Below, one piece after another: positions 5,436-58,659 of a stretch of DNA of 64,000 nucleotides (position 1 is the stretch's first letter; each line of letters begins with the position of its first letter). Position numbers and translations under genes: made by a program. The stretch is from a virus (taxonomy: Duplodnaviria; Heunggongvirae; Uroviricota; Caudoviricetes), in IMG/VR virus record IMGVR_UViG_3300037751_000382, positions 2,619 through 66,618 of that record. One strand, given 5' to 3'. The notes below the pieces were generated by a model that searched no databases, was not told where the DNA came from, and saw only the letters and a list, made by a program, of their open reading frames with translations.

Positions 5436-5755
5436 TTTTAGAGTGCCCTTTTAGAGGTTTACATAGAGTAGGTTACACATGTTACGATCAACATGGAGAG
5501 CTATATGGAGGTAGCTCAAGTTTTTCTAGCAAAATTGAAATAGAAGTACCTGACTCCGTAATTTCTGTTTTAGTTAAAGTTATGGATCAAGGTAACACTA
5601 TTACAAGTGCTCATCTTTGGGAAAACAATAAATGGAAGATGGTGGAATTAGATGATATGGATAAATTGATCGAAAGACTCTCTAAACCAAAGAAACAATT
5701 ACCTCCGAAAAAGTTAGACATGAACAAGTATCCGTTTACAACAATAGATGGCTGA
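5432..5755 (+). CDS. hypothetical protein
   Basis: ORF overlapping both neighbours by 4 nt (translational coupling). Confidence 0.3.
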   Translation: MILECPFRGLHRVGYTCYDQHGELYGGSSSFSSKIEIEVPDSVISVLVKVMDQGNTITSAHLWENNKWKMVELDDMDKLIERLSKPKKQLPPKKLDMNKYPFTTIDG

Positions 5756-33083: not shown

Positions 33084-33707
33084 TCAAGTTACTAATGACT
33101 TCAAAAGATATTTAGTCGCAGTTTCAGTGATCGTCGGCGAATTTTTAAGCATTCCAATTCCTACATTACAACAGTTACAGAGTATACCACGAATACTCCT
33201 TGTTTCATGACAGTGATCAATACACCAACCCTTTTTACCTGGTTCTAAAGTACCGCAAATCTTACAAGTTCCATTTTGCTCTTGCAACATTTTATTAAAA
33301 CACTCATTGTCAACCCCATATTTTCTTAGTTTCTTTTGAGCTGAAATCTTATCTTTATTCTCTTGATTGTATTGTTTTGTTTGGGTTAAAATTTTCTCTC
33401 TATTATTTTGATAGTGTTCCTTCTTTTTGGCTTTGACTTTTTCTTCATTATCATGTCTATATTGTTTCATTTGGATTGAAATTTTCTCTTTATTATCTTG
33501 ACAGTATTTCTTTTGTCGGGATACTAATTTTTCTTTATTATTGTGTCTATATTGTTTAACACGAGCTAAAATTTTTTCTTTATTAGTTTGATAGTAGTTC
33601 TTACTTCGGGCACTAATTTTCTCTTTATTATCTTGATAGTATTGCTTCTTGTAAGCCACCACTTTCTCTTTATTGTCGTGATCTTGATCTTGATCTTTTG
33701 TGTTCAT
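33084..33707 (-). CDS. HNH homing endonuclease (endonuclease VII family) with six KxYYQxNKEKI repeats and no zinc ribbon
   Basis: GTCKICGTLEPGKKGWCIDHCHETRSIRGILCNCCNVGIGMLKN. Repeats encoded by roughly 60-bp DNA repeats at 33330-33690. Confidence 0.65.
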   Translation of the reverse strand: MNTKDQDQDHDNKEKVVAYKKQYYQDNKEKISARSKNYYQTNKEKILARVKQYRHNNKEKLVSRQKKYCQDNKEKISIQMKQYRHDNEEKVKAKKKEHYQNNREKILTQTKQYNQENKDKISAQKKLRKYGVDNECFNKMLQEQNGTCKICGTLEPGKKGWCIDHCHETRSIRGILCNCCNVGIGMLKNSPTITETATKYLLKSLVT

Positions 33708-33756: not shown

Positions 33757-34176
33757 TTAATTGTTTTCATTATGACCTTTAAAAGCATGTTCAAGGTATG
33801 ATTTAAATTGAGTCCATTCCTTTGGTCTATCATCGCCTTCCTTGAAAGTGTAATAATAGTGAATTAACATAAGAAGATTTGCCATAACATGATCCAAATG
33901 TAATTCACCTGATTCGGGATCATTGTCTTCTAAACAATACCAAAACTTTTCTAAGTGGCGTTGTAAACACTCGAAAGGTATTGACCAATTACTCCCCTTG
34001 GTCCAATTCCAAGCTGCATACTTTTTATACCCAAATTCAAATACTCTGGCGACTCCTGAAAATAAAATCATTGGTACTAGGGACAGTTTTACCTTGCCTT
34101 TAGTGGCCCGCGCTGTAGTTCCCCTATCCGTACTATCAATATCTCCTACATTATACTTATTTTCCAAATTTTTCAT
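33757..34176 (-). CDS. dATP/dGTP pyrophosphohydrolase-like protein (PF04447-like; by recollection)
   Basis: KVKLSLVPMILFSGVARVFEFGYKKYAAWNWTKG...DPESGELHLDHVMANLLMLIHYY resembles the phage dATP_dGTP_PPHyd N-terminal domain as recalled. Confidence 0.4.
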   Translation of the reverse strand: MKNLENKYNVGDIDSTDRGTTARATKGKVKLSLVPMILFSGVARVFEFGYKKYAAWNWTKGSNWSIPFECLQRHLEKFWYCLEDNDPESGELHLDHVMANLLMLIHYYYTFKEGDDRPKEWTQFKSYLEHAFKGHNENN

Positions 34177-36952
34177 AAATTATTTCTCTTTCTTCTTTGA
34201 TCAATTTACCATTTCTTACTATAAAATTACTACTTTCCTTTAACTCTTCAAACGATAAATTTCCAATGGCGACTTGATTATTATTAAATCTTCCTACTGG
34301 GAATCTCTCGGAGAGTTTTTTTCGTACTATATTTTTAGTAAATCTGCTTTTTTCAAAAGCATCTACTTTTTCTATAAACTTATCATAGAACTCTTGTAAT
34401 AAAATAAATGTTCCAGATATCTCAAAACAATGAGCATTAATAAATTCTTCTAAAGCGTCCCTATTGTTAGCAGCTGCAGTTAACTTTGTTTCAGTGTTAA
34501 TATAGGGAAGTCTTAATCTACCAGTAGCAGCTGAAGGGAAAGGCATTTTCATAAATGTATGCATGATATCCGGGGCTTCATCCCTTAAATGATCTATTAG
34601 TGTTCCTTTTGGAATTTCGTTCTCAATTTGATCTACATATAAAGCAGTAACTCTTTTATCATCGCCAAAAATAGGTAAGGATGAAAGAGTGTTTGACATT
34701 TGAACTAAATGTAATGAACTCCGCATTTGGATTACAGGTTTAAATTTTGCATGTATGCTTATGTTCAACCCGGTAGTCCACTCCTTCAACTTATTATAAG
34801 CATTTAACCCAGCTCGACTAACATCAACCTCATCGACAACTCCGAGCACCGCATTTGCCAGCTCCCCATTAAAATCATTTTGATTAGTTAACGCCCTATC
34901 AGCTTTCACCACCCCATTACTAATTAATAGATCAATAGCTTCATGAAAAACAGATTTACCAGTACTTTGTTCCCCATAAAAGAATAAATATGGAAGTTTC
35001 TCAAAAGGCTCTCTAAGCATAACAGAAACCCATGCCTTTAGATAATCTCCGCCTGTAACGATTCCCCAATCACTACACCAAGGATATTGAGGAATATATT
35101 CATTTAACTCTTGTCCAAGGTGTTCAAAAATTAAATCCCAGTGAGGGTGATTAGGTGCTTCATCATTATCTAATGCTCGTGGGGAATAGATTAATTGTGG
35201 TGCTTTGTAATTCCATTCCCTGCCACCTGGATACTCTTCCCTAAAAGGAATGTTTACATGTGTCCAGGCATTATTAGCTGCTAACCCAAAATATTGTGTT
35301 AAGAGATTATTATTTAATCCATATACGCCTTTAAGAATTTTTGAGATATTTGCTTCTGTATGTATTACCCATTTACCAGTTGCATCTTTAAAGAACCATG
35401 TAGAAGCAGAACCTCCCATGCTCCCAGTATCAGTCACATCGACTTCTTTTACCAATCTTAATTTATTATCTATTGTAACAAATAAATCTGGATCATCTCT
35501 TTCATTTGTTATTTTTTCATTTAAGACTTTTATGAAAAATTTACCTTTGCGAATCCAGGTTTTAAATTCTGTAACAAAATCTTCTTCATCCCGTGACTTA
35601 GCTTCAGTTTCAATAACTAACCTATTTTCGGCTCCCTTATTAGAAAGATAGAATGTTCTTATTAGTTCTTCAGGTACTTGGTAATCTGCCCCTATATAAG
35701 ATAAAGCTAAATTTAGTGAAGATACATTATCAAACATAAATTTATTCTTATCTAAATGATCTTTTCCTCCGGCCCCTATACAGGCCAATCGTAATGTAGG
35801 GATTTGATTATAAGGTAAAAAAGTCCATTTCCCTTGATCACTCCATAAAGGATGTTCTTTTGTGCCTTCTCCAAAACGGTAAACATTCCAGCCGCCGTTA
35901 ACAACTGGGCGTAGAAAACAATTCGGTTTACCTGGATCACTTCCAGGGGCGTTCGTTTCAAAAGGACCTTTCATTGGATGTCCATTTTCTGCCCATTTCC
36001 TATGTACATTTTTTAAAGCTACTGTATGAGTCTGAAGTAAATGGTGATCGTGTACCCAACATACACTATAACCTGATTGTTCTAAATCATTGATAATGGC
36101 TTTGTGGACATCATCAAGTTCAATTTTCAGACTTTCCTTAGTCATATCATCTAGTTCATCACCTTTAGTTAGACCATTAGAAGTGTATCCTTGAACCTTT
36201 ACTTTCGTTCTGTTACCTGTTGTTACATCCAAATGATCTTTCCAGTTAGGAGGTACATCTTTACTAATTAATATAGGTCCAGAAGATGGCTTTAAAAGTT
36301 TATAACCTTCGGGAGTAGAGTTTTTATGATATAGCCAAAGTATCTGGCCACAAACATCCATGTGAATTTGAAAATTAAACCCAGTATCAAAAGACATTTT
36401 AGATAACATGGCTCTGGCAAGAGCAGCATGTTCAGTATGTGTATTAGTCTTTGGAGCGTCCAGTGGATTAAAAAAGATGTACAAATGTCTCCCATTACCT
36501 CTGGTAGATTTAAAAACTGTACAATAAGGAGGAGATTTTTCAACAATTTTAACTAAATCATTTTCTGTGACTCCGATACCGTTTGCATGGCCTATAATAG
36601 AATCAAAATCAAAACCAACCCAATATGATTCTTTAGTTTTCCAATTCCAACCAGTGCTACCGATTGCTTGAAGATGTTTGGAAAGATCAAAAGTAATTGG
36701 ATAATCGTTCCATTCAGGGGAGGAGGTATTAGCTTTGTACGGCCAACGAACATGTTTCCAAGTCTCATCTCCATCAGACCAGATATTTTTACTATCTATT
36801 TGTTGTTGCTTTGTGCCAGGTACAACCATTATCTGGGTTTCAAGGGCTTCCAATTGAGTGTGCCAAAGATCAAAAAGATCAGGGTTATTATGATTTAAAC
36901 GAATATGATTACCATATTCCTTGAAAGCGGTCCATATCGTATTATTATTCAT
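34157..36952 (-). CDS. bifunctional primase-polymerase (AEP)/SF3 helicase, D5-like
   Basis: N-terminal GFDFDSI...STRGNGRHLYIFF (Prim-Pol motifs). C-terminal Walker A FFYGEQSTGKSVF and Walker B VLGVVDEVD. 931 aa. Confidence 0.65.
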   Translation of the reverse strand: MNNNTIWTAFKEYGNHIRLNHNNPDLFDLWHTQLEALETQIMVVPGTKQQQIDSKNIWSDGDETWKHVRWPYKANTSSPEWNDYPITFDLSKHLQAIGSTGWNWKTKESYWVGFDFDSIIGHANGIGVTENDLVKIVEKSPPYCTVFKSTRGNGRHLYIFFNPLDAPKTNTHTEHAALARAMLSKMSFDTGFNFQIHMDVCGQILWLYHKNSTPEGYKLLKPSSGPILISKDVPPNWKDHLDVTTGNRTKVKVQGYTSNGLTKGDELDDMTKESLKIELDDVHKAIINDLEQSGYSVCWVHDHHLLQTHTVALKNVHRKWAENGHPMKGPFETNAPGSDPGKPNCFLRPVVNGGWNVYRFGEGTKEHPLWSDQGKWTFLPYNQIPTLRLACIGAGGKDHLDKNKFMFDNVSSLNLALSYIGADYQVPEELIRTFYLSNKGAENRLVIETEAKSRDEEDFVTEFKTWIRKGKFFIKVLNEKITNERDDPDLFVTIDNKLRLVKEVDVTDTGSMGGSASTWFFKDATGKWVIHTEANISKILKGVYGLNNNLLTQYFGLAANNAWTHVNIPFREEYPGGREWNYKAPQLIYSPRALDNDEAPNHPHWDLIFEHLGQELNEYIPQYPWCSDWGIVTGGDYLKAWVSVMLREPFEKLPYLFFYGEQSTGKSVFHEAIDLLISNGVVKADRALTNQNDFNGELANAVLGVVDEVDVSRAGLNAYNKLKEWTTGLNISIHAKFKPVIQMRSSLHLVQMSNTLSSLPIFGDDKRVTALYVDQIENEIPKGTLIDHLRDEAPDIMHTFMKMPFPSAATGRLRLPYINTETKLTAAANNRDALEEFINAHCFEISGTFILLQEFYDKFIEKVDAFEKSRFTKNIVRKKLSERFPVGRFNNNQVAIGNLSFEELKESSNFIVRNGKLIKEEREIIYEKFGK

Positions 36953-39627: not shown

Positions 39628-40065
39628 GTGAAAACTATTTTATTTTTACTGTTATTTACTTCGGTTAGTTATGGTCAAAGTTTCAACATTCTTTCACCGC
39701 TTCCGGATGAAGTATATTCTATGTCACGGAACGAGTATGAGCAATGGTGTTGGGATCAAAATGAAGAAGCCCTTAGTAAAGCGCAACATGATGCTAGTAA
39801 ATTTAACGCGACCCGACGAAGTAGTTACTTGCGAATAGGAACATATCCAAATGATACTTTGATTCGATCTTATTCTGAACCGTCTTGGGGTGGTGGACCG
39901 GTAGTAGTTTTGAATCCTTATGCTAAACGCCATCCTAAGATTGTTAATAGGAATCCTGATAAGAGGCAATTTAGTATACTTGACCCTGATGGTGCTGTGA
40001 ATGATAAGAATTTACCGGAAATTATTACTTTGGAATTGAATCGTTTGAACAAGGAAACTCATTAA
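39628..40065 (+). CDS. secreted protein (GTG start, signal peptide)
   Basis: MKTILFLLLFTSVSYGQSF. Preceded by aaggattaatttGTG, the same spacer as 39404. Confidence 0.4.
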   Translation: MKTILFLLLFTSVSYGQSFNILSPLPDEVYSMSRNEYEQWCWDQNEEALSKAQHDASKFNATRRSSYLRIGTYPNDTLIRSYSEPSWGGGPVVVLNPYAKRHPKIVNRNPDKRQFSILDPDGAVNDKNLPEIITLELNRLNKETH

Positions 40066-40457
40066 TGATTTATCTCTGTTCCCCATACACACATACTTCT
40101 GAAGTAGTTAGAAATGACCGTTATCTTAGGACATGTGTAGCTACCTCTAAACTGATTAAAAAGGGTCAAGTTATATTTAGTCCAATTGTTCATAGTCTTC
40201 CGTTAGTTAAGTTCGGGGAATTAGGAACACTTTGGAGTGATTGGATTGAGTATAATAAAGCTATGATGGATATTAGCGTTGCGGTAGCAGTGTTACCGTT
40301 AAGTGGTTGGGCAGAAAGCAATGGAGTGGCATTTGAAATTGACTATGCATTAAAGAATAACATTACTTTATGGAAAGTGGACTTAGAGAAATATGAATAT
40401 GTAGCTTTCAGTACAAATATAGTCCCTGATACAATTAAGGAATATTACATTGAATAA
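40065..40457 (+). CDS. nucleoside 2-deoxyribosyltransferase-like fold protein (DUF1937-like)
   Basis: N-terminal IYLCSPY and C-terminal LSGWAESNGVAFEIDYA (catalytic Glu-type motif D/S-G-x-x-F-E-x-G-x-A). Confidence 0.45.
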   Translation: MIYLCSPYTHTSEVVRNDRYLRTCVATSKLIKKGQVIFSPIVHSLPLVKFGELGTLWSDWIEYNKAMMDISVAVAVLPLSGWAESNGVAFEIDYALKNNITLWKVDLEKYEYVAFSTNIVPDTIKEYYIE

Positions 40458-40990: not shown

Positions 40991-41462
40991 TGTAGTTTTA
41001 GTGATGTTTTCTGATTATGATTTAGCTACTTTAGCTACATTAACACATACAATGTTTGGGCAAAGTATTTGCAGGGAAGCCGATAAAAAAGAATTACCAG
41101 AAAAGTTACATAATTTAGAATGTTTAAAGAATTTTGGTGAGAATCAGAACATAAATAAAATTTATTTTGTCTCTTTCTTGATTTTAGCTGATTCGCGTGA
41201 TATACTTGATCTATTAACTATTTGCAATGGATTATCCTTTATACATTCTCCTACACGTAATAGGGACTGTGAGACTTTAATAGTGACCGGTAGTTTATGT
41301 GCTTGGGATCAAGTTTTGGTTAATGCTTTTAGTGTAGTTAGGCGGTATGAAATAGAAAATATATTTAAAACTATTTATAAAGAAGTAGAAAAACTCGGCA
41401 TTTATTCTTTCAAAATTCCTAAACCAATTTCCACTGTTAGTGCAATTGAGTATATACAATGA
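40983..41462 (+). CDS. hypothetical protein
   Basis: 159-aa ORF coupled to the downstream HNH. Confidence 0.3.
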   Translation: MNNVVLVMFSDYDLATLATLTHTMFGQSICREADKKELPEKLHNLECLKNFGENQNINKIYFVSFLILADSRDILDLLTICNGLSFIHSPTRNRDCETLIVTGSLCAWDQVLVNAFSVVRRYEIENIFKTIYKEVEKLGIYSFKIPKPISTVSAIEYIQ

Positions 41463-42016
41463 AAACTTGTTCCAAATGTAAACTGTCTAAAGATACTAAT
41501 GAATTTCATAAGAATAAAAGTAGAAAAGATGGCTTTAATTGTCAATGTAAAGAATGTATAAAAGAATATAGTAATCGCCCAGACGTAAAACAACATAACA
41601 AAGAATATATTAAGGAATATGGTAAGGGATATCGTGATCGCCCAGAAGTAAAACAACGTAACAAAGAATATAATAAAAAATATTATAAGGAATATTTAAA
41701 TCGTCCAAAAGTAAAACAACATAAAAAAGAATATTATAAGGAACGTGGGTATAACACAAAATATGGTTTAACATTAGAAACAGTAAATCAATTAAAGATT
41801 TTGTTGGAAAATAAATGTTGTCTTTGTGGTTGTTTAACAGAAGAATTAGTAATTGACCATGATCATAATACAAATGAAATTAGAGGATTACTTTGCCATA
41901 ATTGTAATTTAGGGTTAGGAAGATTAGGTGACACAATTGAAGGACTTACAAAAGCTATAAAATATCTACAAAGTAAACTTGGTCAAAAATTACTTTTAAT
42001 GATAGGAAACTCATGA
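41459..42016 (+). CDS. HNH homing endonuclease (endonuclease VII family), intact
   Basis: CSKCKLSKDTNEFHKNKSRKDGFNCQCKEC ribbon, KEYxKxY repeats, CCLCGCLTEELVIDHDHNTNEIRGLLCHNCNLGLGRLGD. Confidence 0.7.
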   Translation: MKTCSKCKLSKDTNEFHKNKSRKDGFNCQCKECIKEYSNRPDVKQHNKEYIKEYGKGYRDRPEVKQRNKEYNKKYYKEYLNRPKVKQHKKEYYKERGYNTKYGLTLETVNQLKILLENKCCLCGCLTEELVIDHDHNTNEIRGLLCHNCNLGLGRLGDTIEGLTKAIKYLQSKLGQKLLLMIGNS

Positions 42017-43168: not shown

Positions 43169-44947
43169 TTGATCGAAAATATTAAGTTACTTTCACCTGA
43201 TGGTAAGTATTGGCTACCTTCACAAATAGAAAGAGTAGAAGGGAAAATTCGTTTTATAAAATCACCATTTGCTCTTAAGGATGAAATTAAGTCTATGAAA
43301 GGAAGCAGGTGGATGGGTTATGATGACGATGACCCTGAGAATATTTGGATAGTGGATGATTGCCATAGAAACAATTTTCAACTTTCCTATTTACAAGGAA
43401 AAGACCCTTATGCTTTTTGGGATAAGGAAATAGTAGAATACAACTACATTAGGCCATTAATGTCCCATCAAGTTGATATGGCCAATTTCATGTTAACGAG
43501 GCACTTTTGTATAATGGCTGCTGCTACAGGTGTAGGGAAAACACTCAGTGCTATTGAGGTGATGGAGAAATCAGGAAGTAAAGATTGGTGGTATGTAGCA
43601 CCTAAATCTGCTCTTTATGCTGTTACTAAGGAATTTGAGAAATGGAATGTTTCTTTTATCCCTAAGATGATGACATATGAATCAATGAGGGCCACCATGA
43701 AAAAGTGGCCAGGAGGTGATGCACCTTTTGGGGTAATTTTTGACGAATCCCAAAGACTTAAATCTATTAAGTCTCAAAGGACCAAGTGTGCTCAGTACCT
43801 GGCGGATGCTATTAGAGATGAGTATGGAGTAGATGGTTATGTGTTACTAATGAGTGGAACCCCATCTCCTAAATCACCTGTTGACTGGCACTCACAGATG
43901 GAAATAGCTTGCCCCGGATTCCTTAAAGAAGGGAGCGAAAAGGCTTTTAGGTGGCGGTTGGGGATTTTTGAAAAGAAACAAAAGGAACAAGGTTTCTTTT
44001 GGGATAGAGTTTCTTGGAAAGATGATTCTAATAAATGTAATATTTGCGGGAAGTTCAAAGAGGAGCATGAGGGGATAAATGATATTGATCATGCGTGGGT
44101 AGAGAGTATTAATGAGGTTGCTTTTCTTAATGAACGACTTGAGGGAGCGGTTTTTAAAGTAAATAAGGATGTTCTTAATCTTCCTGATAAGCATTATAGG
44201 GTTGTTGAGTGTGAGGTTTCATCGACAATCAAACGTGTGGCTAGTATTCTTGCTGAGAACGCGCCCACCGCGATCCAAGCGTTAACGTGGTTAAGAGAAT
44301 TAAGTGATGGTTTTCAATATAGAGAGGAAGAAAATGGAATCAGAGATTGTAATGTGTGCTGTGGCACTGGGACTTTTGAGTGTGATGGCTGCGGTGGCGC
44401 TGGCAAAATCCCTAATAAAGTAAGAGTAGCTAAGCAAATTACATGCCCAAAAGAACAAGCATTAGTCGATCTTCTTGACGAAAATAGTGACCAAGGAAGA
44501 TTGGTAATTTTTGCAGGATTCACTGGCTCCATTGATCGGATCACAAGTATTTGTTTACGAGAACAATGGGATGTTGTTCAAGTAGATGGACGTGGCTGGA
44601 AAGTAATTACTCCTAAAGGAATAATGGATAAACCTTTAGATTATTGGAGTGATGTAAGTAATGAGAGAGTAGCATTTGTGGCACACCCTCAAAGCGGAGG
44701 AACCGGATTAACCCTTACTGAGTCACGGATGGCAGTATTTTATAGTAATGACTTTAATCCTGATTCTAGGATGCAAGCTGAAGATCGTATCCATAGAATA
44801 GGAACAGACATTAATAAAGGGGCCACAATAGTTGATATTATCCATTTACCAACGGACTTGAAAGTTCGAGAAGTGTTACGAGAAAATAGAAAATTAGAGC
44901 TATTAACTTTAGGTGAAATCATCAATGTTTTTGGCAGTAAAGAATAG
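43169..44947 (+). CDS. SNF2/DEAD-like superfamily 2 helicase with zinc-finger inserts
   Basis: Walker A AATGVGKT, DEAH-like FDESQ, motif III LLMSGTPSPKSPVDW, CNICGK...CNVCCGTGTFECDGCGGAGKI. Putative TTG start. Confidence 0.55.
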   Translation: MIENIKLLSPDGKYWLPSQIERVEGKIRFIKSPFALKDEIKSMKGSRWMGYDDDDPENIWIVDDCHRNNFQLSYLQGKDPYAFWDKEIVEYNYIRPLMSHQVDMANFMLTRHFCIMAAATGVGKTLSAIEVMEKSGSKDWWYVAPKSALYAVTKEFEKWNVSFIPKMMTYESMRATMKKWPGGDAPFGVIFDESQRLKSIKSQRTKCAQYLADAIRDEYGVDGYVLLMSGTPSPKSPVDWHSQMEIACPGFLKEGSEKAFRWRLGIFEKKQKEQGFFWDRVSWKDDSNKCNICGKFKEEHEGINDIDHAWVESINEVAFLNERLEGAVFKVNKDVLNLPDKHYRVVECEVSSTIKRVASILAENAPTAIQALTWLRELSDGFQYREEENGIRDCNVCCGTGTFECDGCGGAGKIPNKVRVAKQITCPKEQALVDLLDENSDQGRLVIFAGFTGSIDRITSICLREQWDVVQVDGRGWKVITPKGIMDKPLDYWSDVSNERVAFVAHPQSGGTGLTLTESRMAVFYSNDFNPDSRMQAEDRIHRIGTDINKGATIVDIIHLPTDLKVREVLRENRKLELLTLGEIINVFGSKE

Positions 44948-45341
44948 ATCAATATATCTAGCGATAAGACCAAAACATGACTATACCTTGGTTCATTTTA
45001 CTTGTAAGTGTGGTTGTGATTCTATTTGCATGTCAGCTATACTTGGGGAAAGTGGATTAATATGTAAGTATGTTTGCTTGGGTTGCAGAGAAGAGCAAAT
45101 TGTGCCGTTTTCAGGTGTGGAAGAATTTACGTGTTATTTAGTGTACGTGTATAAAGGTAAAGTTGTAAAGTGGAGGTTGTTAAAAGTGACTGATGAACGT
45201 TAACAGATTGATAAGTGAAATTGAATCCTATGAAGGAAGAATATTCATTGAAGTAAATGATGTTGTTTACGATATTGAAAGAATAACAGATGATAGTCAA
45301 GGCGTGTATATTATCGCTAAGACTAGTGATAGGGATTATAG

Positions 45342-46481
45342 ATGAAGTGCCCCATTTGTAATAGTAAAAATATACAGCGTTTTTACAATCTTGGTCTTAG
45401 GCCTTTAAGCGTATCACACTTAAGTGACACATTTGTAAAATCTCTTAGTCTACCTAAACATGAAATCGATATGTGGACGTGTAGAATTTGCTCACATGTT
45501 TTTAATATTAGATATGATGAACGCAATATTAATTATGGTTGTTCAAGTTGTACTATGTACAATAGTGGTAAGCTTTGGGATAACACAGTAAAAAATTGGT
45601 ATAAAGATTATAATATTTTTACTGAGAAAGATGTGATTGTAGAGATTGGCGCGGGTAATGGTTCTTTTTTAAAGTGGTTACCAGGCAATAGTACAAAAAT
45701 TGCTTTTGAGCCGGGACCCGATAATGAAAAATGTAAAGAAAAAGGTTTAAATACTGTGGAAGGTTATTTTGATCCCGAAACAGATATTCAATTTTTTAAA
45801 CCCACTTACATAATAATGCGGCATGTTTTAGAGCATATAACTAATCCTAAAGAATTTATTGATAGTATCTTGGAAAATTGTATTAAAGAAAATATTTTTC
45901 CTACGATGATCATAGAAGTCCCGTTAATAGAGAATGCTTTAACAGACGCTAGGATCGAGGATTGGGTATATGAACATCCCCACCATTTTACTATAACTAG
46001 TTTGAAAAAGTTATTTGCTAATTGGAATGTTTTTAAGATTGATACTATTTATGACAATGAAGTAGTGATTATAAAAGCAAATCCGAAACCAATTTTAAAC
46101 AATTTTTCTATTGTAGCTCTTAAAAATTTTGCTAATTTAAGTTTAACTAATGCTCGTGAGCAACTAATTAGTTGGATTAAAGCGGAAAAGAAAATAGCAC
46201 TTTGGGGTGGCGCCGGTAAGAGTTCTATGTTCCTTTATGCCTTAGGTATAGATGATTCCTTTGGTATAGTAGTTGATAGTGATGAAAGGAAGGTTGGCAA
46301 GTATGTTCCTGGGAAAGCAATAAAAATACACTCTGTTAATGAGTTAATAAATAATCCAGTTGACATTATTATTGCGACTACCAGCTGGCGATCAGATGAT
46401 ATTTTTGAGGAAATTAAAAATAAAAATATTAAATGTGAAAGTTTTTATATTTTTAAAAATGGTAAATTTGTAAAGGTATAA
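45342..46481 (+). CDS. TylCIII-family NDP-hexose C-methyltransferase-like SAM methyltransferase
   Basis: N-terminal zinc ribbon CPICNS...LGLRPL...CRICSHVF. SAM motif VIVEIGAGNGSFL. IIEVPLI and EHPHHF. C-terminal domain KKIALWGGAGKSSMFLYALGIDDSFGIVVDSDERKVGKYVPGKAIKIHSVNEL. Confidence 0.7.
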   Translation: MKCPICNSKNIQRFYNLGLRPLSVSHLSDTFVKSLSLPKHEIDMWTCRICSHVFNIRYDERNINYGCSSCTMYNSGKLWDNTVKNWYKDYNIFTEKDVIVEIGAGNGSFLKWLPGNSTKIAFEPGPDNEKCKEKGLNTVEGYFDPETDIQFFKPTYIIMRHVLEHITNPKEFIDSILENCIKENIFPTMIIEVPLIENALTDARIEDWVYEHPHHFTITSLKKLFANWNVFKIDTIYDNEVVIIKANPKPILNNFSIVALKNFANLSLTNAREQLISWIKAEKKIALWGGAGKSSMFLYALGIDDSFGIVVDSDERKVGKYVPGKAIKIHSVNELINNPVDIIIATTSWRSDDIFEEIKNKNIKCESFYIFKNGKFVKV

Positions 46482-46484
46482 ACA

Positions 46485-46658
46485 ATGAGCAGAATTAGTG
46501 ACGGCGAAGTGTATCGTATTGATGATGAAGGAAGTATTATTTATATGGCAGATGTAATTGCCGAAATGATGGGTTATAAGAAACCTTTTGTAGTTCATTA
46601 TTTTGATGGCAATCCTTTAAATAATACACGTGAAAATTTACGAGTAATGGAGTTATAA
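46485..46658 (+). CDS. mini HNH-motif protein (57 aa)
   Basis: VVHYFDGNPLNNTRENLRVM resembles the H-x-D-G-N-x-x-N-N...NL core of HNH_3 nucleases. Confidence 0.3.
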   Translation: MSRISDGEVYRIDDEGSIIYMADVIAEMMGYKKPFVVHYFDGNPLNNTRENLRVMEL

Positions 46659-48442
46659 TGGCCAAGAAAGACTTAATACTTTACCCCGCAGATTTTACTA
46701 AAGCAACACCGATAGCAAAACGTAACCTATTCCTGAGGAAGTTACTTGATCAAGATTATCATACAATTGCTCAATCTATTATCAAGTATCTTATTTTCTT
46801 TGAGGAAAATCACTATTTTGCCTATAACCTTGAAGATCAATTAAGATTTGATGAGTTTGTTTCAGCAGTATTTTCTACTATTGTTGACCCTAATTTTGTT
46901 CCGAATGATAATGATGCAAAGTGCTTGGTAGCATGTAACCATTTATTCAGTAATGTTGTAGCTACTTCTTCCTACGGCACTACTGATGGTCCCTTGCTCC
47001 ATATTCTTAAGCAACAGAACAACGCCGCTAAAGTGTTATTTCTTTATAACTCACGGTGTAAAATTAAAATTGATCTTAAAAAGTTTTTTGATGTATCTCC
47101 ATTAATTGCTTCTATTTGGTATAATACTTTTATGTTGGGAACAAGTTGCCCTTCTCTGATCCAACAGGAGAATCTATTCTTACATTTAGAAAATATGGAT
47201 GAACGCTGGACACCTCCTAATAGGCACGTGAGTTCATTGTATTTTACTTGTACATACATGAATCCTATAAATGATAGACGGGTAAAAGGAATAATTAATA
47301 AATCGCTTAAGAATCATTTAACTGTAAAGATAGTTAATGAACCTAATCCAAATAAAATTGCCATTGTTACTAGTAAATGGCATCGTAATCACGCGGTGTA
47401 CAAAAGCGCAGGTCCATTAGTAGAACAATTAAGAGGTCACTATGATTTAACTCTTATTCATTTAGGTTGGAAACTTCCTGATAATTTGTGTACAGAAGGT
47501 TTTAATAAAGTGATACGGGCAGCTTTTCCTCAGGAAACAAATAACAGTGATCTTAGATTGCCGGATGAATTGTTGAAAAATGATTTTGGTTTAATCTATT
47601 TCCCAGATATCGGCATGACGGACGAGTGTACGTGGATGAGCAATATTAGAATGTCACCTATTCAAGTTGTAGGGTATGGTCATCCAGCGACAACTGGCGA
47701 TAACAACGAAATTGATTATTTTCTTGGCGGAGATATCGAGAAAGATGTAACAGATTGTTATTCAGAGAAAATGATACTTATTCCAGGGTTAGCTCAACAT
47801 CCTGCTTGGCCAACATATGCACGGAAGTATAACTGGAAAGAGAATGAAGCTGTCCAGATCAATTGTGTCTGGGGTCCCGATAAGTTTTCATATACACTGT
47901 TAAAGGTACTTCAAAGAATTAGTCAATTATCTACTGTTCCTCATACTTATAATTTTTATCCTTCACCAGGTATAAATCGTTATGCTGGATTTGTGCCTTT
48001 TAAAAAGGACATCCAATCTATACTCCCTAATTCAATTATTCACGGTGATAAAGAATATTATGACTATATGGAGAGTGCTGAGAAGGGGGACTTTAGTATT
48101 AACTCTTTTATTTTTGGAGGATTTAATACTATTATAGAGTCTTTATTCTTAGGATTACCTGTAACGACTATAGAAGGTGATAGATTTTACAATAAGGCTG
48201 CTAGTTTCTTACTGCGAAAGATTGGTTTCGGAGAACTTAGTTCCACAAATATTAATGAGTTTATTAATATCACAGTTAGGATGATAAATGATAAAGATTA
48301 CAGAGGAGGAAAAAGGAAGGAATTAGCTGAAATGAATATTAAGGAATTATTATTTTGTGACCCTGGAGATAGTTTCAAAAGAGCTATTGATTATATAATT
48401 GCTAATCACCCTATAAAAGAAAAGTGTACACTGATATCATGA
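46658..48442 (+). CDS. GT41-family (O-GlcNAc transferase-like) glycosyltransferase
   Basis: IAIVTSKWHRNH, SPIQVVGYGHPATTG...IDYFLGGD...YSEKMILIPG and DFSINSFIFGGFNTIIESLFLGLPVTTIEGD...ASFLL align to OGT catalytic lobes ([61 protein letters not shown]..ASRVA). Confidence 0.65.
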   Translation: MAKKDLILYPADFTKATPIAKRNLFLRKLLDQDYHTIAQSIIKYLIFFEENHYFAYNLEDQLRFDEFVSAVFSTIVDPNFVPNDNDAKCLVACNHLFSNVVATSSYGTTDGPLLHILKQQNNAAKVLFLYNSRCKIKIDLKKFFDVSPLIASIWYNTFMLGTSCPSLIQQENLFLHLENMDERWTPPNRHVSSLYFTCTYMNPINDRRVKGIINKSLKNHLTVKIVNEPNPNKIAIVTSKWHRNHAVYKSAGPLVEQLRGHYDLTLIHLGWKLPDNLCTEGFNKVIRAAFPQETNNSDLRLPDELLKNDFGLIYFPDIGMTDECTWMSNIRMSPIQVVGYGHPATTGDNNEIDYFLGGDIEKDVTDCYSEKMILIPGLAQHPAWPTYARKYNWKENEAVQINCVWGPDKFSYTLLKVLQRISQLSTVPHTYNFYPSPGINRYAGFVPFKKDIQSILPNSIIHGDKEYYDYMESAEKGDFSINSFIFGGFNTIIESLFLGLPVTTIEGDRFYNKAASFLLRKIGFGELSSTNINEFINITVRMINDKDYRGGKRKELAEMNIKELLFCDPGDSFKRAIDYIIANHPIKEKCTLIS

Positions 48443-48954
48443 AAACTATTAAATTAACTAAAGGTAAAGAAGCCATTATTGATAAGAAAAATTATGAACA
48501 TTTCATGAAATGTAAATGGAGTTATAGCGGTAATGGATATGCTATTAGACGTTTAACAATAGCCGAACGAAATTTAAAGCAAATTAAATGTAAACATGTT
48601 GGTATGCATAGAGAAGTACTTGAATTAATGGGATTTAAAAATTTTCAAGATTCGGAACACATAAATTTTAATAAACTAGATAATAGAGAAAGTAATTTAC
48701 GGATAGCTACACGTAGTCAAAATATTGCACACAGGCCAAAGTTTAATGGTTGTGTTTCAATATATAAAGGGGTATCTTGGCAAAATGACAAACAAATATG
48801 GAGGGCAAGAATAGCCCCAAATAGAAAAGAGATTTTCTTGGGCACTTTTAAATGTGAAGAAGACGCCGCTAAGGCATATGATAAAGCTGCATTAAAAATT
48901 TATGGTAAATTTGCCGTTTTAAACTTTCCAGGAGAATTAAATGTTAACATTTGA
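48439..48954 (+). CDS. HNH endonuclease with C-terminal AP2 DNA-binding domain
   Basis: AP2-like YKGVSWQNDKQIWRARIAPNRKEIFLGTFKCEEDAAKAYDKAA. Paralog of the partial gene at 63563. Confidence 0.55.
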   Translation: MKTIKLTKGKEAIIDKKNYEHFMKCKWSYSGNGYAIRRLTIAERNLKQIKCKHVGMHREVLELMGFKNFQDSEHINFNKLDNRESNLRIATRSQNIAHRPKFNGCVSIYKGVSWQNDKQIWRARIAPNRKEIFLGTFKCEEDAAKAYDKAALKIYGKFAVLNFPGELNVNI

Positions 48955-50173
48955 TCAAGTAAAAGAATTAAGAAAAGACGCTAAAGAAAAGATTTTAACT
49001 CAAAAGGAAATTGGGAAGAAATTCGGACTTTCAAGGTCCACAGTTTCAGATATTTCCTGCGGCAGAATTTACAAGCAACCTTCTACTAAAGACTTTATTA
49101 CTACCGACCCTCTTACTAAACTTCAAGCTGAAAATATTCACCTCAAAGAAGAACTTTCAATTTACAAGCAACAAACAAAAAAGTTATTAAAATGCCAAGG
49201 TCTTTATCAGGAGATAATGGGAAATCTATCAGATGTAATTAAACCTTTTACATCATTACCGTTAGCTAGGAAACCTTATAAGAATAAGAACATTAGTATT
49301 GAACATTTAGTGATGCATCTTTCTGATGGTCATCATGATCAAATAGTGACTCCTGAGGAATGTGGAGGATTAGAGAAGTATGATTTCTCTATTAGTTGCT
49401 GTAGAGCTGAGAAGTATGTAGATACACTTCTCAAATGGACTCAAGAAACATTATACCCTAACTTTCGGTTTCCCTCTCTCACTGTTTTAGCTTATGGAGA
49501 CCACACATCAGGGGAAATTCATAACAATGTGCCAAGAAGTCAATTCAGGAATCAATTCCAAAATTGTCTTGCAATTGGTCAATTACATGCTATGATTTAC
49601 CGGGACCTTGCACCGTATTTTGAGCAGATAAATGTACTTTATGTTCCGGGTAACCACGGAAGACGATCCTTTAAAAAGGATTATCACGGTGCTCATGATA
49701 ATTGGGATTATTTAGTAGCAAAGACGGCTGAAATTTATTGTAGGAAGTTAAATAATGTCTCTTTCACAATACCCAATGCGTATTCGATCAATATTGAAAT
49801 TGCTGGAAACGGATTTTCTGTGTTCCATGGAGATGACATCCGAAGCCAAATGGGAATCCCCTGGTACGGGTTGGAACGAAAGAAATACCGATTACTGGCA
49901 CTTAATTCTTTGTCTATCTCCACCCCCATACGATACTCGTGTTGTGGACATTTTCACCGCCCCACAACCATAGCAAATTTAAATGGAGAAATGCTTATTA
50001 ACGGGTCATGGGTAGCTACTGACGCCTTTATTTATGAGTCATTTGGTGGTTACACTGAACCCACTCAACTACTTCACGGGGTAAACGAGAAAGGGATTAC
50101 CTGGAAGCTACCGGTGAGATTGAAGTGTGATTATGAGAACGAAGGTCCTAAAAGGTATAAGGTGACAATATGA
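48941..50173 (+). CDS. calcineurin-like metallophosphoesterase with N-terminal HTH
   Basis: HTH KEIGKKFGLSRSTVSDI. Motifs DGHHD, GDHTSGE, GNHGR, HGDD, GHFH in canonical order. Confidence 0.55.
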   Translation: MLTFDQVKELRKDAKEKILTQKEIGKKFGLSRSTVSDISCGRIYKQPSTKDFITTDPLTKLQAENIHLKEELSIYKQQTKKLLKCQGLYQEIMGNLSDVIKPFTSLPLARKPYKNKNISIEHLVMHLSDGHHDQIVTPEECGGLEKYDFSISCCRAEKYVDTLLKWTQETLYPNFRFPSLTVLAYGDHTSGEIHNNVPRSQFRNQFQNCLAIGQLHAMIYRDLAPYFEQINVLYVPGNHGRRSFKKDYHGAHDNWDYLVAKTAEIYCRKLNNVSFTIPNAYSINIEIAGNGFSVFHGDDIRSQMGIPWYGLERKKYRLLALNSLSISTPIRYSCCGHFHRPTTIANLNGEMLINGSWVATDAFIYESFGGYTEPTQLLHGVNEKGITWKLPVRLKCDYENEGPKRYKVTI

Positions 50174-50448: not shown

Positions 50449-50793
50449 ATGAACATTGACTGGAGAAATGATAAGTTTGAAGAGTTGTTGCTTACTGAAA
50501 ACATTCCACATGACAAGCGAAAGCGAATCATGGTCAAATTGCAGCAATTTGGTGATTCATTATTTGATGAAGGGTATCAGCTTGGGACACAAGAAGCAAA
50601 TTGTGATGCGAATTGTGATGCGAATTGTGATGAGAATTGGCAGGACGTGTATAAGGATGGTTTTAACGATGGTTACACAAGCGCATGTGACGATATAGAT
50701 GGAGATTATGATGAAGGAAATTATGGTGAAGAGGACTTTGAAGCAAATGATAATAATGTTGTTGTGAACATTACTAATAATTTTTATCAATAA
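50449..50793 (+). CDS. acidic repeat protein (ANCD x3, DGFNDGY motif)
   Basis: Very Asp/Glu-rich. Contains the 12-bp x3 DNA repeat. GY motifs shared with the small ORF at 50821-50995. Confidence 0.4.
   Translation: MNIDWRNDKFEELLLTENIPHDKRKRIMVKLQQFGDSLFDEGYQLGTQEANCDANCDANCDENWQDVYKDGFNDGYTSACDDIDGDYDEGNYGEEDFEANDNNVVVNITNNFYQ
50599..50634 (+). repeat. three tandem 12-bp repeats (aattgtgatgMg)
   Basis: aattgtgatgcg / aattgtgatgcg / aattgtgatgag. Confidence 0.85.
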
Positions 50794-53135: not shown

Positions 53136-53670
53136 AGAAACAATTGAAACATATATGTCGGCAGCGTATCGTTTAGCTAAGCAAAGTTCCGATAGTTCCT
53201 GTCAAAATGGAGCTATCATACTTTTAAATGAGACTTTATTAGGAACAGGTTACAATGAATTTCCCCCCGGAGTTCAATTTGATCTTATAAAAGCCACTCA
53301 ACGACCTGAAAAGTATATTTATTATGAACATGCTGAACGTGCAGCTATTTACCATTGCGCAAAATATGGAAATGGCACAATGGACGGAATAATGATTTGC
53401 CCATGGGCTTGCTGTTGCGATTGTGCCCGAAGTATCATTTGTGCCGGTATTAGGAAAGTTATTGTTCACGCTGAACGTATGGATGTGACCAGAGATTTTT
53501 GGCAGGAAAATATAAAAATTGCTTGGGGAATGTTGACAGAAGCTAAAGTTAAAGTAGAATTGTACAGAGGGCCGGTTGGTGTAAAACCTATTCGAGTGAA
53601 TGGGAAATTGTGGAGCCCGGATACTTGTGACTTTGTGGAGAAAGAAAATGACAGTGACATATGCAGATGA
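53128..53670 (+). CDS. dCMP (deoxycytidylate) deaminase
   Basis: Zinc motifs HAERAAIY and CPWACCCDCA (H-A-E...P-C-x-x-C). Start overlaps the dut stop by 8 nt. Confidence 0.75.
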   Translation: MNKETIETYMSAAYRLAKQSSDSSCQNGAIILLNETLLGTGYNEFPPGVQFDLIKATQRPEKYIYYEHAERAAIYHCAKYGNGTMDGIMICPWACCCDCARSIICAGIRKVIVHAERMDVTRDFWQENIKIAWGMLTEAKVKVELYRGPVGVKPIRVNGKLWSPDTCDFVEKENDSDICR

Positions 53671-53815
53671 TCATGGAAACAATGAGAATTCAAAAAATGA
53701 AAATTGGCGAGATGAATGGTACGATGAAGAGGATTGGTATGATGATTGGGAAGATGATTGGGAAGATAATTGGGAAGATAATTGGTATGATGAATTTGAC
53801 AGGGACGAGGCTTAA
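53648..53815 (+). CDS. 56-aa hyper-acidic Trp-rich protein (DNA-mimic candidate)
   Basis: MTVTYADDHGNNENSKNENWRDEWYDEEDWYDDWEDDWEDNWEDNWYDEFDRDEA. GGAG RBS, overlaps the deaminase 3' end. Confidence 0.45.
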   Translation: MTVTYADDHGNNENSKNENWRDEWYDEEDWYDDWEDDWEDNWEDNWYDEFDRDEA

Positions 53816-57808: not shown

Positions 57809-58057
57809 ATGTCCACTATGAATATAGACCAATTAATCGCTAAATTTAAATTAATCTATGGAGATTTTTATGTGACCTTTTTCCGTGAGACTACGCATAC
57901 AGGTGACCTAGAAATAAGATTTAAGGAAGGGTTCCCACCAGTAATTATATTACCTGTGGTTAATTTTAATCCTGATTTTAATGATATTTCTCCTAGTATG
58001 GATGATCCTGGTTGGGAGTTAGAACCTAATTATATTGCTTCTATTGGTTTAAAGTGA
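57809..58057 (+). CDS. hypothetical protein
   Basis: 82-aa ORF, ATGA-coupled to the HNH gene. Confidence 0.3.
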   Translation: MSTMNIDQLIAKFKLIYGDFYVTFFRETTHTGDLEIRFKEGFPPVIILPVVNFNPDFNDISPSMDDPGWELEPNYIASIGLK

Positions 58058-58659
58058 ATAAAAATATAGTGCCCGTTGGCTATAAACGATGTAGTTGTTG
58101 CCATAATGAATTACCGACAGCTCAATTTTCTAAAGATAAAAGTAGAAAAGATGGGTTAAATTGTCAATGTAAACAATGTCGTAAAGAATATAAAAACAAA
58201 TATTATAAAACCCATCATCAACAAAACAAAGATTATTATATAGCCAATAAAATGGCTATTAGAAACTATCAAAATGAATATAATAAAAATTATCGTAAGA
58301 CAAACAAAAATTATTTTAAAGAATATTCGTTAAAATATAATTTTAACCTCACTTTAACGGAGCGTGATTTGATCTTTTCCCAACAAGGAAACTGTTGTGC
58401 GTTATGTGGGAGTTTAACACCAAAAAGCAAACGTGATTGGTGTGTTGACCATGATCATAAAATTGTGGACAAAAGGAACTCAATCAGAGGTATTCTTTGT
58501 CTCAAGTGTAATATGAACATTATAGGGATGGTCGAAAATTTTGCTAATGAACAAGGTTTAGAAATTGACGTGGCAATAGCAAAAATCGCCGATTATCTAA
58601 ATAACCAAGTTTCAAGAACACAAAATTTTTTAAACAATATACCACATAAACGTGATTAA
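58054..58659 (+). CDS. HNH homing endonuclease (endonuclease VII family), intact
   Basis: YKRCSCCHNELPTAQFSKDKSRKDGLNCQCKQC ribbon, NxYxKNY repeats, CCALCGSLTPKSKRDWCVDHDHKIVDKRNSIRGILCLKCNMNIIGM. Confidence 0.7.
   Translation: MNKNIVPVGYKRCSCCHNELPTAQFSKDKSRKDGLNCQCKQCRKEYKNKYYKTHHQQNKDYYIANKMAIRNYQNEYNKNYRKTNKNYFKEYSLKYNFNLTLTERDLIFSQQGNCCALCGSLTPKSKRDWCVDHDHKIVDKRNSIRGILCLKCNMNIIGMVENFANEQGLEIDVAIAKIADYLNNQVSRTQNFLNNIPHKRD

Follow-up and report, generated by a model that had tools for sequence, protein, structure and literature searches.

Phage glycosyltransferases such as the T4 alpha- and beta-glucosyltransferases and those of mycobacteriophage virion glycosylation decorate DNA or virion proteins with host sugar nucleotides. 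The T4 enzymes are of families GT72 and GT63 and require a 5-hmC pathway, those of the mycobacteriophages are GT2-like, and neither has a methyltransferase partner. A different kind of glycosyltransferase is represented by the HMW1C-like N-glycosyltransferases (NGTs; ApNGT, AaNGT and H. influenzae HMW1C, CAZy GT41), in which an all-alpha N-terminal domain is joined to a GT-B domain, and in AaNGT an Arg177/Asp215 dyad (plus His214) recognises the Ser/Thr at +2 of N-X-S/T. Flagellin glycosylation islands of bacteria provide a known case of GT41 enzymes associated with methyltransferases, the two being functionally tied in a protein-glycosylation setting (PMC4875605). Among the sugar C-methyltransferases of the TylC3/EryBIII class (MtmC, TcaB9 and KijD1), MtmC has two activities on TDP-4-keto sugars, as a 3-C-methyltransferase and as a 4-ketoreductase (PMC10269268).

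We analysed a 64,000-nucleotide stretch of phage DNA (the window), for which an original prediction had proposed a TylCIII-type sugar C-methyltransferase (MT) next to an O-GlcNAc transferase (OGT)-like GT41 glycosyltransferase (GT). Both open reading frames are genuine and lie where they had been placed (Table 1), and every motif quoted for them is recovered in the translations, namely CxxC at residues 3-6 and 47-50, VIVEIGAGNG, WGGAGKSS...VVDSDERKVGKYVPG, SPIQVVGYGHPATTG, YSEKMILIPG and GGFNTIIESLFLGLPVTTIEGD. The family resemblances of MT and GT are far beyond chance level; the enzyme kinds are known, and the module that they form is undescribed in phages.

Table 1. Coordinates of the MT-GT pair and surrounding features in the window.
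Feature	Coordinates	Strand	Evidence
SNF2-family helicase, invariant neighbour upstream of the module	43169..44947	+	Pfam, PHROG, synteny
ORF of ~50 aa with motif DSQGVY, just 5' of MT and overlapping its start codon	45193..45345	+	Alignment
SAM-dependent methyltransferase (MT), TylC3/TcaB9/MtmC three-domain class, 379 aa	45342..46481	+	Pfam, profiles, AF2/Foldseek
HNH_3 fragment ORF, 57 aa, filling the MT-GT gap	46485..46658	+	Pfam HNH_3 E=2e-5
GT41 glycosyltransferase (GT), HMW1C/NGT architecture, 594 aa	46658..48442	+	Profiles, AF2/Foldseek, residue mapping
HNH-AP2 homing endonuclease, inserted between GT and exonuclease	48424..48954	+	Pfam, PHROG
Mre11/SbcD-like exonuclease with N-terminal HTH, invariant neighbour downstream	48941..50173	+	PHROG 284 exonuclease 8.6e-35, synteny

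As had been predicted, the pair sits in the DNA-metabolism block, flanked by the helicase and nucleases, and not in the virion block, which occupies ~1-32 kb of the window. The order helicase-MT-GT-exonuclease is found in all 20 non-redundant related phage contigs, and the MT and GT genes are adjacent in each of them, abutting or overlapping wherever the loci have gene calls and without the HNH_3 gap seen here at 46485..46658. We conclude that MT and GT form a module that is fixed within the replication operon of an uncultured clade of siphovirus-like phages. The module is strictly kept across the clade, which implies that its function matters for fitness during replication. Searches with the DNA polymerase, exonuclease or capsid returned no cultured close relative, and a scan of representative genomes gave two distant bacterial loci only and no prophage copies.

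The HNH_3 fragment between MT and GT is the leftover of a mobile element and lies outside the module, and the HNH-AP2 endonuclease, with no counterpart in related phage loci except a contig of the same phage (L001), is peculiar to this phage. In the relatives the exonuclease gene either overlaps the stop codon of GT or lies almost next to it, with a gap of at most a few tens of bases in tblastn layouts; phage homologues of its product carry annotations such as calcineurin-like phosphoesterase and DNA repair exonuclease. HMM searches of the loci find the ~50-aa upstream ORF in 17 of the 20 phage contigs, each time in the same place, and find no match to it in any bacterial MT-GT locus; it has no Pfam match, and it is a possible third component of the module. 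A promoter and terminator scan of 42.5-51.2 kb was uninformative because the counts equal the shuffled expectation.

From N- to C-terminus, MT has a Cys4 zinc ribbon (C3, C6, C47 and C50), a SAM domain of the Rossmann type with EIGAGNG at 101-107, and an NDP-binding domain marked by WGGAGKS (288-294) and VVDSDERKVGKYVPG (310-324). Of the Pfam models that define the three-domain class (Methyltransf_13, then _23 or _11/_12, then _14), Methyltransf_23 (1e-10) and Methyltransf_14 (5e-9) score above the cut-off, and the zinc-ribbon model Methyltransf_13 gives 18.6 bits, under its cut-off of 31.3, with the four cysteines still conserved in the family. A profile of the MT family matches MtmC (1.8e-50), TcaB9 (1.7e-42) and KijD1 (1e-40) from the PDB over their full length, and the 18 top Foldseek matches of the AF2 model (pLDDT 92) are all MtmC, TcaB9 or KijD1. 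These results agree in placing MT in the TylCIII-like class that had been proposed for it, even though structure-based identity to these enzymes is 14-16% and MT lies outside any deoxysugar or polyketide cluster, with a GT41 and not a GT1 partner.

Of the TcaB9 active-site residues probed according to PDB mutant entries (Y76, H181, Y222, E224 and H225, numbered from SEQRES with an inferred +2 offset), H181, E224 and H225 align with MT H165, E211 and H212. Among 44 family members these three residues never vary, nor do the Cys4 ribbon or the motifs of the NDP domain. MT is thus predicted, from family membership and the conserved active-site residues, to be an NDP-hexose C-methyltransferase. Its chemistry or stereochemistry may differ from that of the characterised enzymes, because the two probed TcaB9 tyrosines have no aligned equivalents: Y222 aligns with V209, one position before a near-invariant Y210, and Y76 falls within a poorly aligned loop. 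In PHROGs, MT matches only one family of unknown function, and in 50,697 phage genomes it has only weak matches (22-24% identity), in two uncultured jumbo phages, a short uncultured phage record of 4.8 kb (MT838861.1) and cyanophage S-SKS1.

The assignment of GT to GT41 stands, and its description as OGT-like does not. Pfam Glyco_transf_41 (PF13844) scores 27.0 bits against a cut-off of 25, over residues 478-565 only, and structure prediction (AF2 pLDDT 91.4) gives an all-alpha N-terminal domain (about 1-220) followed by a GT-B catalytic domain. Against PDB sequences the best matches are HMW1C-like NGTs (E=3e-24 over residues 114-567), whereas OGT and SPINDLY (SPY) are far weaker (1e-8 to 1e-3, C-terminus only); the GT profile likewise matches HMW1C-like NGTs nearly full length at 4.5e-41, and SPY, OGT and XcOGT at 1e-14 to 1e-8. 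Foldseek aligns ApNGT and AaNGT with TM 0.75-0.78 over about 620-640 columns (probability 1.00), as compared to TM about 0.5 for OGT and SPY. What GT shares with the latter is the C-terminal lobe of the GT-B domain; it has no TPR repeats, and the sequence likeness is limited to about 90-100 residues. We therefore dropped the OGT-like label, since the NGT fold fits GT much better; GT belongs to GT41 and matches the HMW1C-like soluble NGTs in whole fold and sequence. We also rejected the assignment of GT as an NGT orthologue because both the equivalog model and the sequon dyad fail: NCBIfam NF049992 gives 111 bits, below its cut-off of 1000, identity to the NGTs is only about 19-20%, and the dyad is missing, as described below.

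An alignment of 41 GT homologues has 81 invariant columns, and the donor-site motifs of GT are WHRNHAVYKS (241-250), GYGHP (339-343), WGPDK (405-409) and NSFIFGGFNTIIE (482-494). AaNGT H276, G369-H370 and Y500 correspond to GT H245, G341-H342 and Y470, and K440, N520 and D524 to K409, N490 and E494, suggesting that the phosphate, ribose and core sugar contacts of the UDP-Glc site are conserved. The uracil contacts H494 and S495 are replaced by D/E464 and K/Q465, and the sugar-site residues S277 (A246 in GT), L368, T437 and T519 are all altered. On the acceptor side, a high-confidence profile alignment places S/T192 at AaNGT H214 and G/S/C/V/A193 at D215, with Asp at the latter position in none of the 41 homologues, and R177 falls, in a less certain part of the alignment, on M/L at 159-160; the substitutions hold in 41/41. 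The sequon-reading dyad of the NGTs is thus absent from GT, and the GT acceptor probably differs from theirs for this reason. Together with the replacement of H494 and S495, its absence means that the NGTs are no guide to either the donor or the acceptor of GT. The phage gene also differs from the NGT genes in having no adhesin or two-partner-secretion neighbour and in being partnered with a TylC3-class methyltransferase.

We found no GT match across 50,697 phage genomes in nucleotide and protein searches, no matching PHROGs family, no NGT-fold protein in a viral structure library searched with Foldseek, and no paper on a phage HMW1C/NGT or GT41 enzyme or on a phage C-methyltransferase-GT pair. 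The original prediction had called the combination unusual and knew of no described phage system with it; the second statement agrees with these searches, and the first needs qualifying, as the pair is no single-phage oddity, being present in all 20 contigs and also in bacteria. Homologous adjacent pairs stand alone in the chromosomes of Planctomycetes, Myxococcota and delta-proteobacteria (MAGs), in at least four contexts with unrelated neighbours. In these, MT is about 31% identical to the phage enzyme and adjoins a homologous GT, often with overlapping genes; the GT catalytic halves are 24-28% identical, and hhalign (E=7e-51) covers phage residues 119-593. They differ in that the first ~130 GT residues have no phage counterpart, and in lacking the ~50-aa upstream ORF. 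The phage locus has separate genes, a TylC3-class MT, no sugar genes and a replication operon as its setting, whereas the flagellin islands have fusions with generic AdoMet methyltransferase domains and adjoining sugar-biosynthesis and flagellin genes.

The window ORFs scanned include no dehydratase, no nucleotidyltransferase and no other gene of sugar-nucleotide metabolism, in agreement with the original prediction that none, including a 4,6-dehydratase, accompanies the pair; this negative covers window ORFs, and such genes are possible elsewhere in the source genome. No 4,6-dehydratase, nucleotidyltransferase or ketoreductase was seen in the window or, in the related phages examined, within the +/-10 kb flanks of the module, and 3.5 kb added next to the first ORF of the window contains small ORFs only. 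A donor pathway thus rests on an assumed supply from the host. Association with deoxysugar genes is seen only in distant MT relatives, one (L011) in an operon with PGM, a sugar-1-P nucleotidyltransferase, a 4,6-dehydratase-like SDR and a TPR-GT41, and the other (P0218) fused to an SDR epimerase/dehydratase.

We give a probability of about 0.5 to the reading in which MT and GT form a two-enzyme cytoplasmic module, with MT C-methylating a host NDP-4-keto-hexose and GT transferring the sugar to a macromolecule, most likely a protein. The C-terminal nucleotide-binding domain of MT would bind an NDP-4-keto-(6-deoxy)hexose drawn from the host pool and not made by the phage, such as the sugar that RmlB or Gmd generates, and MT would C-methylate it with SAM via an enolate to give a branched-chain sugar nucleotide, perhaps also reducing the 4-keto group as MtmC can; this step follows from family membership and the active-site residues. 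The NGT-fold GT would then use this methylated sugar nucleotide, or one related to it, for inverting transfer to a macromolecule seated in the groove between its all-alpha and catalytic domains, as the fold, the conserved donor-site residues and the strict gene pairing suggest. Coupling of the two enzymes is favoured by their adjacency in phages, the bacterial pairs, the GT fusions and the flagellin-island precedent. The acceptor is most likely a phage or host protein that is not read through the canonical Arg/Asp sequon dyad: every characterised member of GT41 among the matches (NGT, OGT and SPY) glycosylates proteins, and the acidic GT family (median pI 6.25, net charge -8) and the lack of a hypermodification gene among the scanned window ORFs favour protein over DNA, the charge being a weak and not decisive argument against DNA binding.

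It is also conceivable, if unlikely, that the order is reversed, with GT adding an ordinary sugar of the host, for instance glucose donated by UDP-Glc, and MT then O- or N-methylating either the transferred sugar or the acceptor. In close relatives of GT the fusion partner is a second GT (GT4 or GT14 'Branch'), a sulfotransferase or a short class I methyltransferase without an NDP domain, kinds of enzyme that usually work on glycans already in place, and the sulfotransferase and second-GT fusions suggest that partner enzymes could act on the attached glycan and not on the nucleotide sugar; the absence of keto-sugar pathway genes, both among the scanned window ORFs and at the stand-alone bacterial pairs, and the fused methyltransferase domains of flagellin-island GT41 enzymes (PMC4875605) point the same way. 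However, MT keeps its C-terminal NDP-binding domain with invariant motifs and the His/Glu/His set for enolate C-methylation, the structural relatives that share its architecture are NDP-sugar C-methyltransferases only, and MT relatives are fused to NDP-sugar SDRs. A role in glycosylating a small molecule, making or inactivating a signalling nucleotide, antibiotic or cofactor, has in our view the slimmest chance of the readings considered. Natural-product deoxysugar pathways are the best-known setting of TylC3-class enzymes and a stand-alone bacterial two-gene operon fits a small metabolic function, but GT retains the big all-alpha domain, which in NGTs shapes the groove for the peptide, natural-product GTs are of GT1 and not GT41 type, and there are no aglycone-biosynthesis genes nearby.

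The position of the module, in the replication operon of every clade genome and in a fixed slot with the SNF2 helicase on one side and the exonuclease directly downstream, would also fit a DNA-directed role. GT might glycosylate replicating phage DNA, on a modified base or an exocyclic amine, using a sugar that MT has prepared, and so shield it from host nucleases in the way of the T4 alpha- and beta-glucosyltransferases, which we consider improbable. GT-B enzymes can act on DNA, NGT chemistry targets amide-type nitrogens, the peptide-sequon dyad is missing from the phage GT, and Foldseek gives a weak generic match to a cyanophage DNA alpha-GT (rank 49, E=4.5e-4, TM 0.29). Against this, no base-hydroxymethylase or other hypermodification gene is seen among the window ORFs scanned or kept with the module, ThyX occurs, among the loci examined, only in the window and at one related locus (L002), the GT family is acidic, the bacterial pair has no restriction or nuclease partner, and neither MT nor GT fits any defence system in PADLOC. 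GT also differs from the T4 enzymes in having no specific GT63/GT72 similarity and in the absence of the 5-hmC pathway, no pyrimidine hydroxymethylase being found among the scanned window ORFs, and no GT41 member is known to act on nucleic acid. Slightly more doubtful again is a new kind of phage DNA hypermodification in which the NGT-fold enzyme fixes a C-methyl-branched sugar directly onto the bases of replicating DNA, which would account for the invariant slot between helicase and exonuclease.

If C-methylation by MT followed by transfer to a macromolecule by GT is correct, GT would be the first viral NGT-fold glycosyltransferase, cytoplasmic and independent of a lipid carrier, and the module the first phage system predicted to employ a branched-chain (C-methyl) sugar; candidate benefits are host takeover, shielding of a phage component and defence evasion. 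NGTs serve as tools for glycoprotein production in bacteria, and for this reason a relative with a new specificity for acceptor or donor would have practical value. The analysis also brings to light a large NGT-like family, with 603 cluster representatives at E<=1e-30, whose members are often fused to or paired with glycan-modifying enzymes and are without the known N-X-S/T reading head.

The window, which spans its source contig except for about 37 kb, is a tailed-phage genome with a virion block and a replication and nucleotide-metabolism block, the latter including genes for a DUF5906 primase/helicase, a MazG-like protein, ParB, ThyX, an SNF2 helicase, RNR, dUTPase, dCMP deaminase, PolA, a ligase and a PD-(D/E)XK nuclease. 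The two open reading frames of the original prediction, which code for a methyltransferase (MT) of 379 aa and a glycosyltransferase (GT) of 594 aa, are both present in the second block, and all of the motifs quoted for them were recovered in their translations.

Features of the window, in window coordinates
Feature	Position	Strand	Remarks
Virion block	~1-32 kb		
Laminin_G_3 protein	4147-5118	+	virion block
Terminase	5748-7433		gpA-type
Coat protein	13802-15106		P22-like
Laminin_G_3 protein	16097-17578	+	virion block
Tape measure	20121-23213		
Replication and nucleotide-metabolism block	~32-64 kb		
Endonuclease VII ORF	33084-33707	-	
MazG-like protein	33757-34176	-	
DUF5906 primase/helicase	34157-36952	-	
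DUF1937 protein	40065-40457	+	early region
Endonuclease VII ORF	41459-42016	+	Lys-rich repetitive N-terminus (KQHNKEY.. repeats)
~50-aa ORF	45193-45345	+	consensus ...VEDDSQGVY...DRE.R
MT	45342-46481		
HNH_3 fragment, 57 aa	46485-46658	+	between MT and GT
GT	46658-48442		
HNH-AP2 homing endonuclease	48424-48954	+	complete; between GT and exonuclease
Acidic low-complexity ORF	50449-50793	+	
Acidic low-complexity ORF	53600-53815	+	
Endonuclease VII ORF	58054-58659	+	

The proposal that MT is a TylCIII-type enzyme was borne out by Pfam, by profile searches and by structure comparison. Pfam assigns Methyltransf_23 (1e-10) and the C-methyltransferase C-terminal domain Methyltransf_14 (5e-9), with the Methyltransf_13 zinc-ribbon model below threshold. 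Features conserved or invariant across 44 aligned homologues are all four cysteines of the ribbon, EIGAGxG as the SAM motif, and RHVLEH, EVP, DWxYEH, WGGxGKS and VVDSDxxKxGxYVPG. Only three solved enzymes, all NDP-hexose C-3-methyltransferases, are matched by the family profile from end to end: MtmC (1.8e-50; the nearest solved relative), TcaB9 (1.7e-42) and KijD1 (1e-40), the next matches being generic small methyltransferases at 1e-10. The same three enzymes make up all of the top 18 Foldseek matches to the AF2 model (pLDDT 92.0). Profile alignment places TcaB9 H181, E224 and H225, marked by PDB mutant entries as probed active-site residues, opposite the invariant H165, E211 and H212 of MT; the equivalent of TcaB9 Y222 is one position off, and Y76 is in a poorly aligned loop. 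From these Pfam, end-to-end profile and Foldseek matches and the active-site residues, we conclude that MT truly belongs to the TylC3/TcaB9/MtmC structural class, although as a divergent member, and it may share the C-methylation chemistry of these enzymes.

The description of GT as an OGT-like GT41 enzyme held for the family but not for the architecture. Pfam detects Glyco_transf_41 marginally (27 bits, cut-off 25) and over the last ~90 residues only. The single GT sequence matches the HMW1C-like soluble N-glycosyltransferases ApNGT and AaNGT at 3e-24 (residues 114-567), and for a profile built from 41 homologues the E-value is 4.5e-41 across ApNGT residues 87-612, whereas the profile's matches to SPINDLY, OGT and XcOGT (1e-14 to 1e-8) cover only the C-terminal lobe. 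Likewise, the AF2 model of GT (pLDDT 91.4, pTM 0.90) aligns with ApNGT/AaNGT along the whole chain with TM scores of 0.75-0.78, but with OGT/SPY at ~0.5. The architecture is therefore that of the NGTs, an all-alpha domain with GT-B, and not the TPR type of OGT. GT is not an NGT orthologue: the NCBIfam equivalog model, whose cut-off is 1000 bits, gives it 111. A big protein database contains 283 full-length homologues with 42-86% identity, all of them metagenomic.

We mapped residue roles from the AaNGT structural paper (PMC10507012) onto the GT family using sequence-profile alignments, in which confidence is high across H214/D215 and lower at R177. Conserved residues are K440 (phosphate contact; K409 in the GT family), N520 (phosphate and donor sugar; N490), H276 and G369-H370 (sugar; H245 and G341-H342) and Y500 (uracil; Y470), and there is a conservative change at the ribose contact D524 (E494). 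Replaced residues are S277 (sugar/phosphate; A246), L368 (sugar site; Y340), T437 and T519 (phosphate; G406 and F/Y489), and H494 and S495 (uracil; D/E464 and K/Q465). The peptide-contacting H214 corresponds to S/T192, D215 to G/S/C/V/A193 (Asp in 0 of 41 sequences), and R177, with less certain alignment, to M/L159-160. In AaNGT, H214 contacts the Thr at +3 and its mutation lowers activity ~11-fold, and D215 and R177 are essential for reading the N-X-S/T sequon (PMC10507012). GT thus keeps the catalytic scaffold but differs from AaNGT in the donor base/sugar subsite and in the acceptor-reading head, where the sequon reader is lacking.

Loci were gathered by context look-ups and an IMG/VR scan and tabulated with tblastn; all 20 of the non-redundant phage contigs have the gene order SNF2 helicase, small ORFs, MT, GT and Mre11-like exonuclease. 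Where the phage loci have gene calls, the genes for MT, GT and the exonuclease abut or overlap; in L030, L032 and L033, which are among the most divergent contigs, the exonuclease lies ~2-2.7 kb further downstream, and in these and two others (L016 and L018) the helicase is up to ~4.4 kb upstream of MT. Identities to the window in the phage loci are 52-59% for the helicase and 55-62% for the exonuclease (both full-length matches), 52-59% for PolA, 40-54% for GT and 33-39% for MT. Two mobile elements, the HNH_3 fragment and the HNH-AP2 endonuclease, interrupt the helicase-exonuclease block in the window and are absent from related phages; in another relative, P0182, an HNH-AP2 is fused in frame to MT, and the block seems to be an insertion hotspot for homing endonucleases. 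Directly 5' of MT, 17 of the 20 contigs have the ~50-aa ORF, which Pfam does not recognise and which the bacterial MT-GT loci lack; it may serve the module as a partner or as an acceptor. Searches with DNA polymerase, exonuclease and capsid found no cultured phage close to this clade, and a single related phage contig is binned with a Planctomycetota MAG.

Several bacterial genomes have a distant MT homologue (~31% identity) beside an NGT-like GT, namely a Myxococcota MAG, an unassigned bacterial contig, a delta-proteobacterial MAG with the genes in convergent orientation, and a 415-kb Planctomycetes contig in which they overlap. Such stand-alone pairs (L010, L012/L013, L015 and L036) have neighbours that are unrelated from locus to locus, and all are annotated hypothetical, as are the ~26 Planctomycetes and Myxococcota sequences of the bacterial GT family, which aligns with the phage family at E=7e-51 (hhalign, phage residues 119-593). 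An ECF-type sigma-70 gene directly follows the pair in L036; in L010 such a gene lies on the other strand, ~2 kb upstream. At locus L011 an MT relative shares an operon with a phosphoglucomutase, a sugar-phosphate nucleotidyltransferase, a 4,6-dehydratase-like SDR and a TPR-GT41, and P0218 and related proteins are fusions of MT with an SDR epimerase/dehydratase. These associations, together with the activity of MtmC, which acts on TDP-4-keto sugars and is also able to reduce the 4-keto group (PMC10269268), connect the MT family with nucleotide-sugar metabolism.

Searched exhaustively with HMMER, the GT profile revealed a large uncharacterised family with NGT architecture: it picked up 603 cluster representatives at E<=1e-30, and bacterial contigs were confirmed for several of them. 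The best 150 of the 603 (all E<=1.2e-84) are mostly ~600 aa and match nearly the whole profile. Some of the proteins found (P0278-P0426) are fused to a GT4, GT14 'Branch', sulfotransferase or short class I methyltransferase domain (P0278-P0280, P0292, P0313, P0315, P0358 and P0374), and others are tandem duplications.

That MT and GT are strictly paired in phages and in bacteria, and that family members occur as fusions, suggests that the two cooperate in building a decorated glycan. We favour, at a probability of about 0.5, a pathway in which MT would C-methylate a host-derived NDP-4-keto-hexose and GT would then transfer the methylated sugar, because MT has retained its NDP-binding domain along with the residues for enolate chemistry. 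The main rival is that the same module works in the other order, with MT acting after sugar transfer; the fusion of GT relatives to enzymes acting on attached glycans is in its favour, but the features of MT just named make us regard it as rather unlikely.

The favoured acceptor is a protein, since all characterised GT41 enzymes matched here modify proteins, the GT family is acidic, and no base-hypermodification genes were seen accompanying the module. These same observations make glycosylation of DNA improbable, although the module's place in a replication operon and the missing peptide-sequon dyad speak for it. A small-molecule role for the module is the least likely reading, and we give it little credence.

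The superfamilies of both enzymes were already known, as was the association of GT41 enzymes with methyltransferases in bacteria; among the GT41 enzymes of enterobacterial flagellin glycosylation islands, nearly all have a fused methyltransferase domain (PMC4875605). Searches of phage genomes, a viral structure library and the literature yielded no described virus-encoded NGT-fold enzyme. Also undescribed are the obligatory pairing of an NGT-fold enzyme with a TylC3-class MT, a viral NGT-fold enzyme without the NGT sequon reader, and the fixation of such an enzyme in a phage replication operon.

Elsewhere in the window, the recombination Endonuclease VII domain occurs in three separate ORFs, which is unusually many for one phage. 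The MazG-like protein has a dATP/dGTP diphosphohydrolase N-terminal domain and adjoins the DUF5906 primase/helicase, an arrangement kept in the related phages L003 and L005; neither PurZ nor any other Z-genome gene was seen. The DUF1937 protein resembles nucleoside 2-deoxyribosyltransferases. Two small, highly acidic low-complexity ORFs in the replication block have ANCD repeats and WEDDWEDNWEDNW-type repeats. The Laminin_G_3 domains of two virion-block proteins are concanavalin-A-like lectin/glucanase domains, and both proteins may be decoration proteins that bind glycans, or may bind a receptor.
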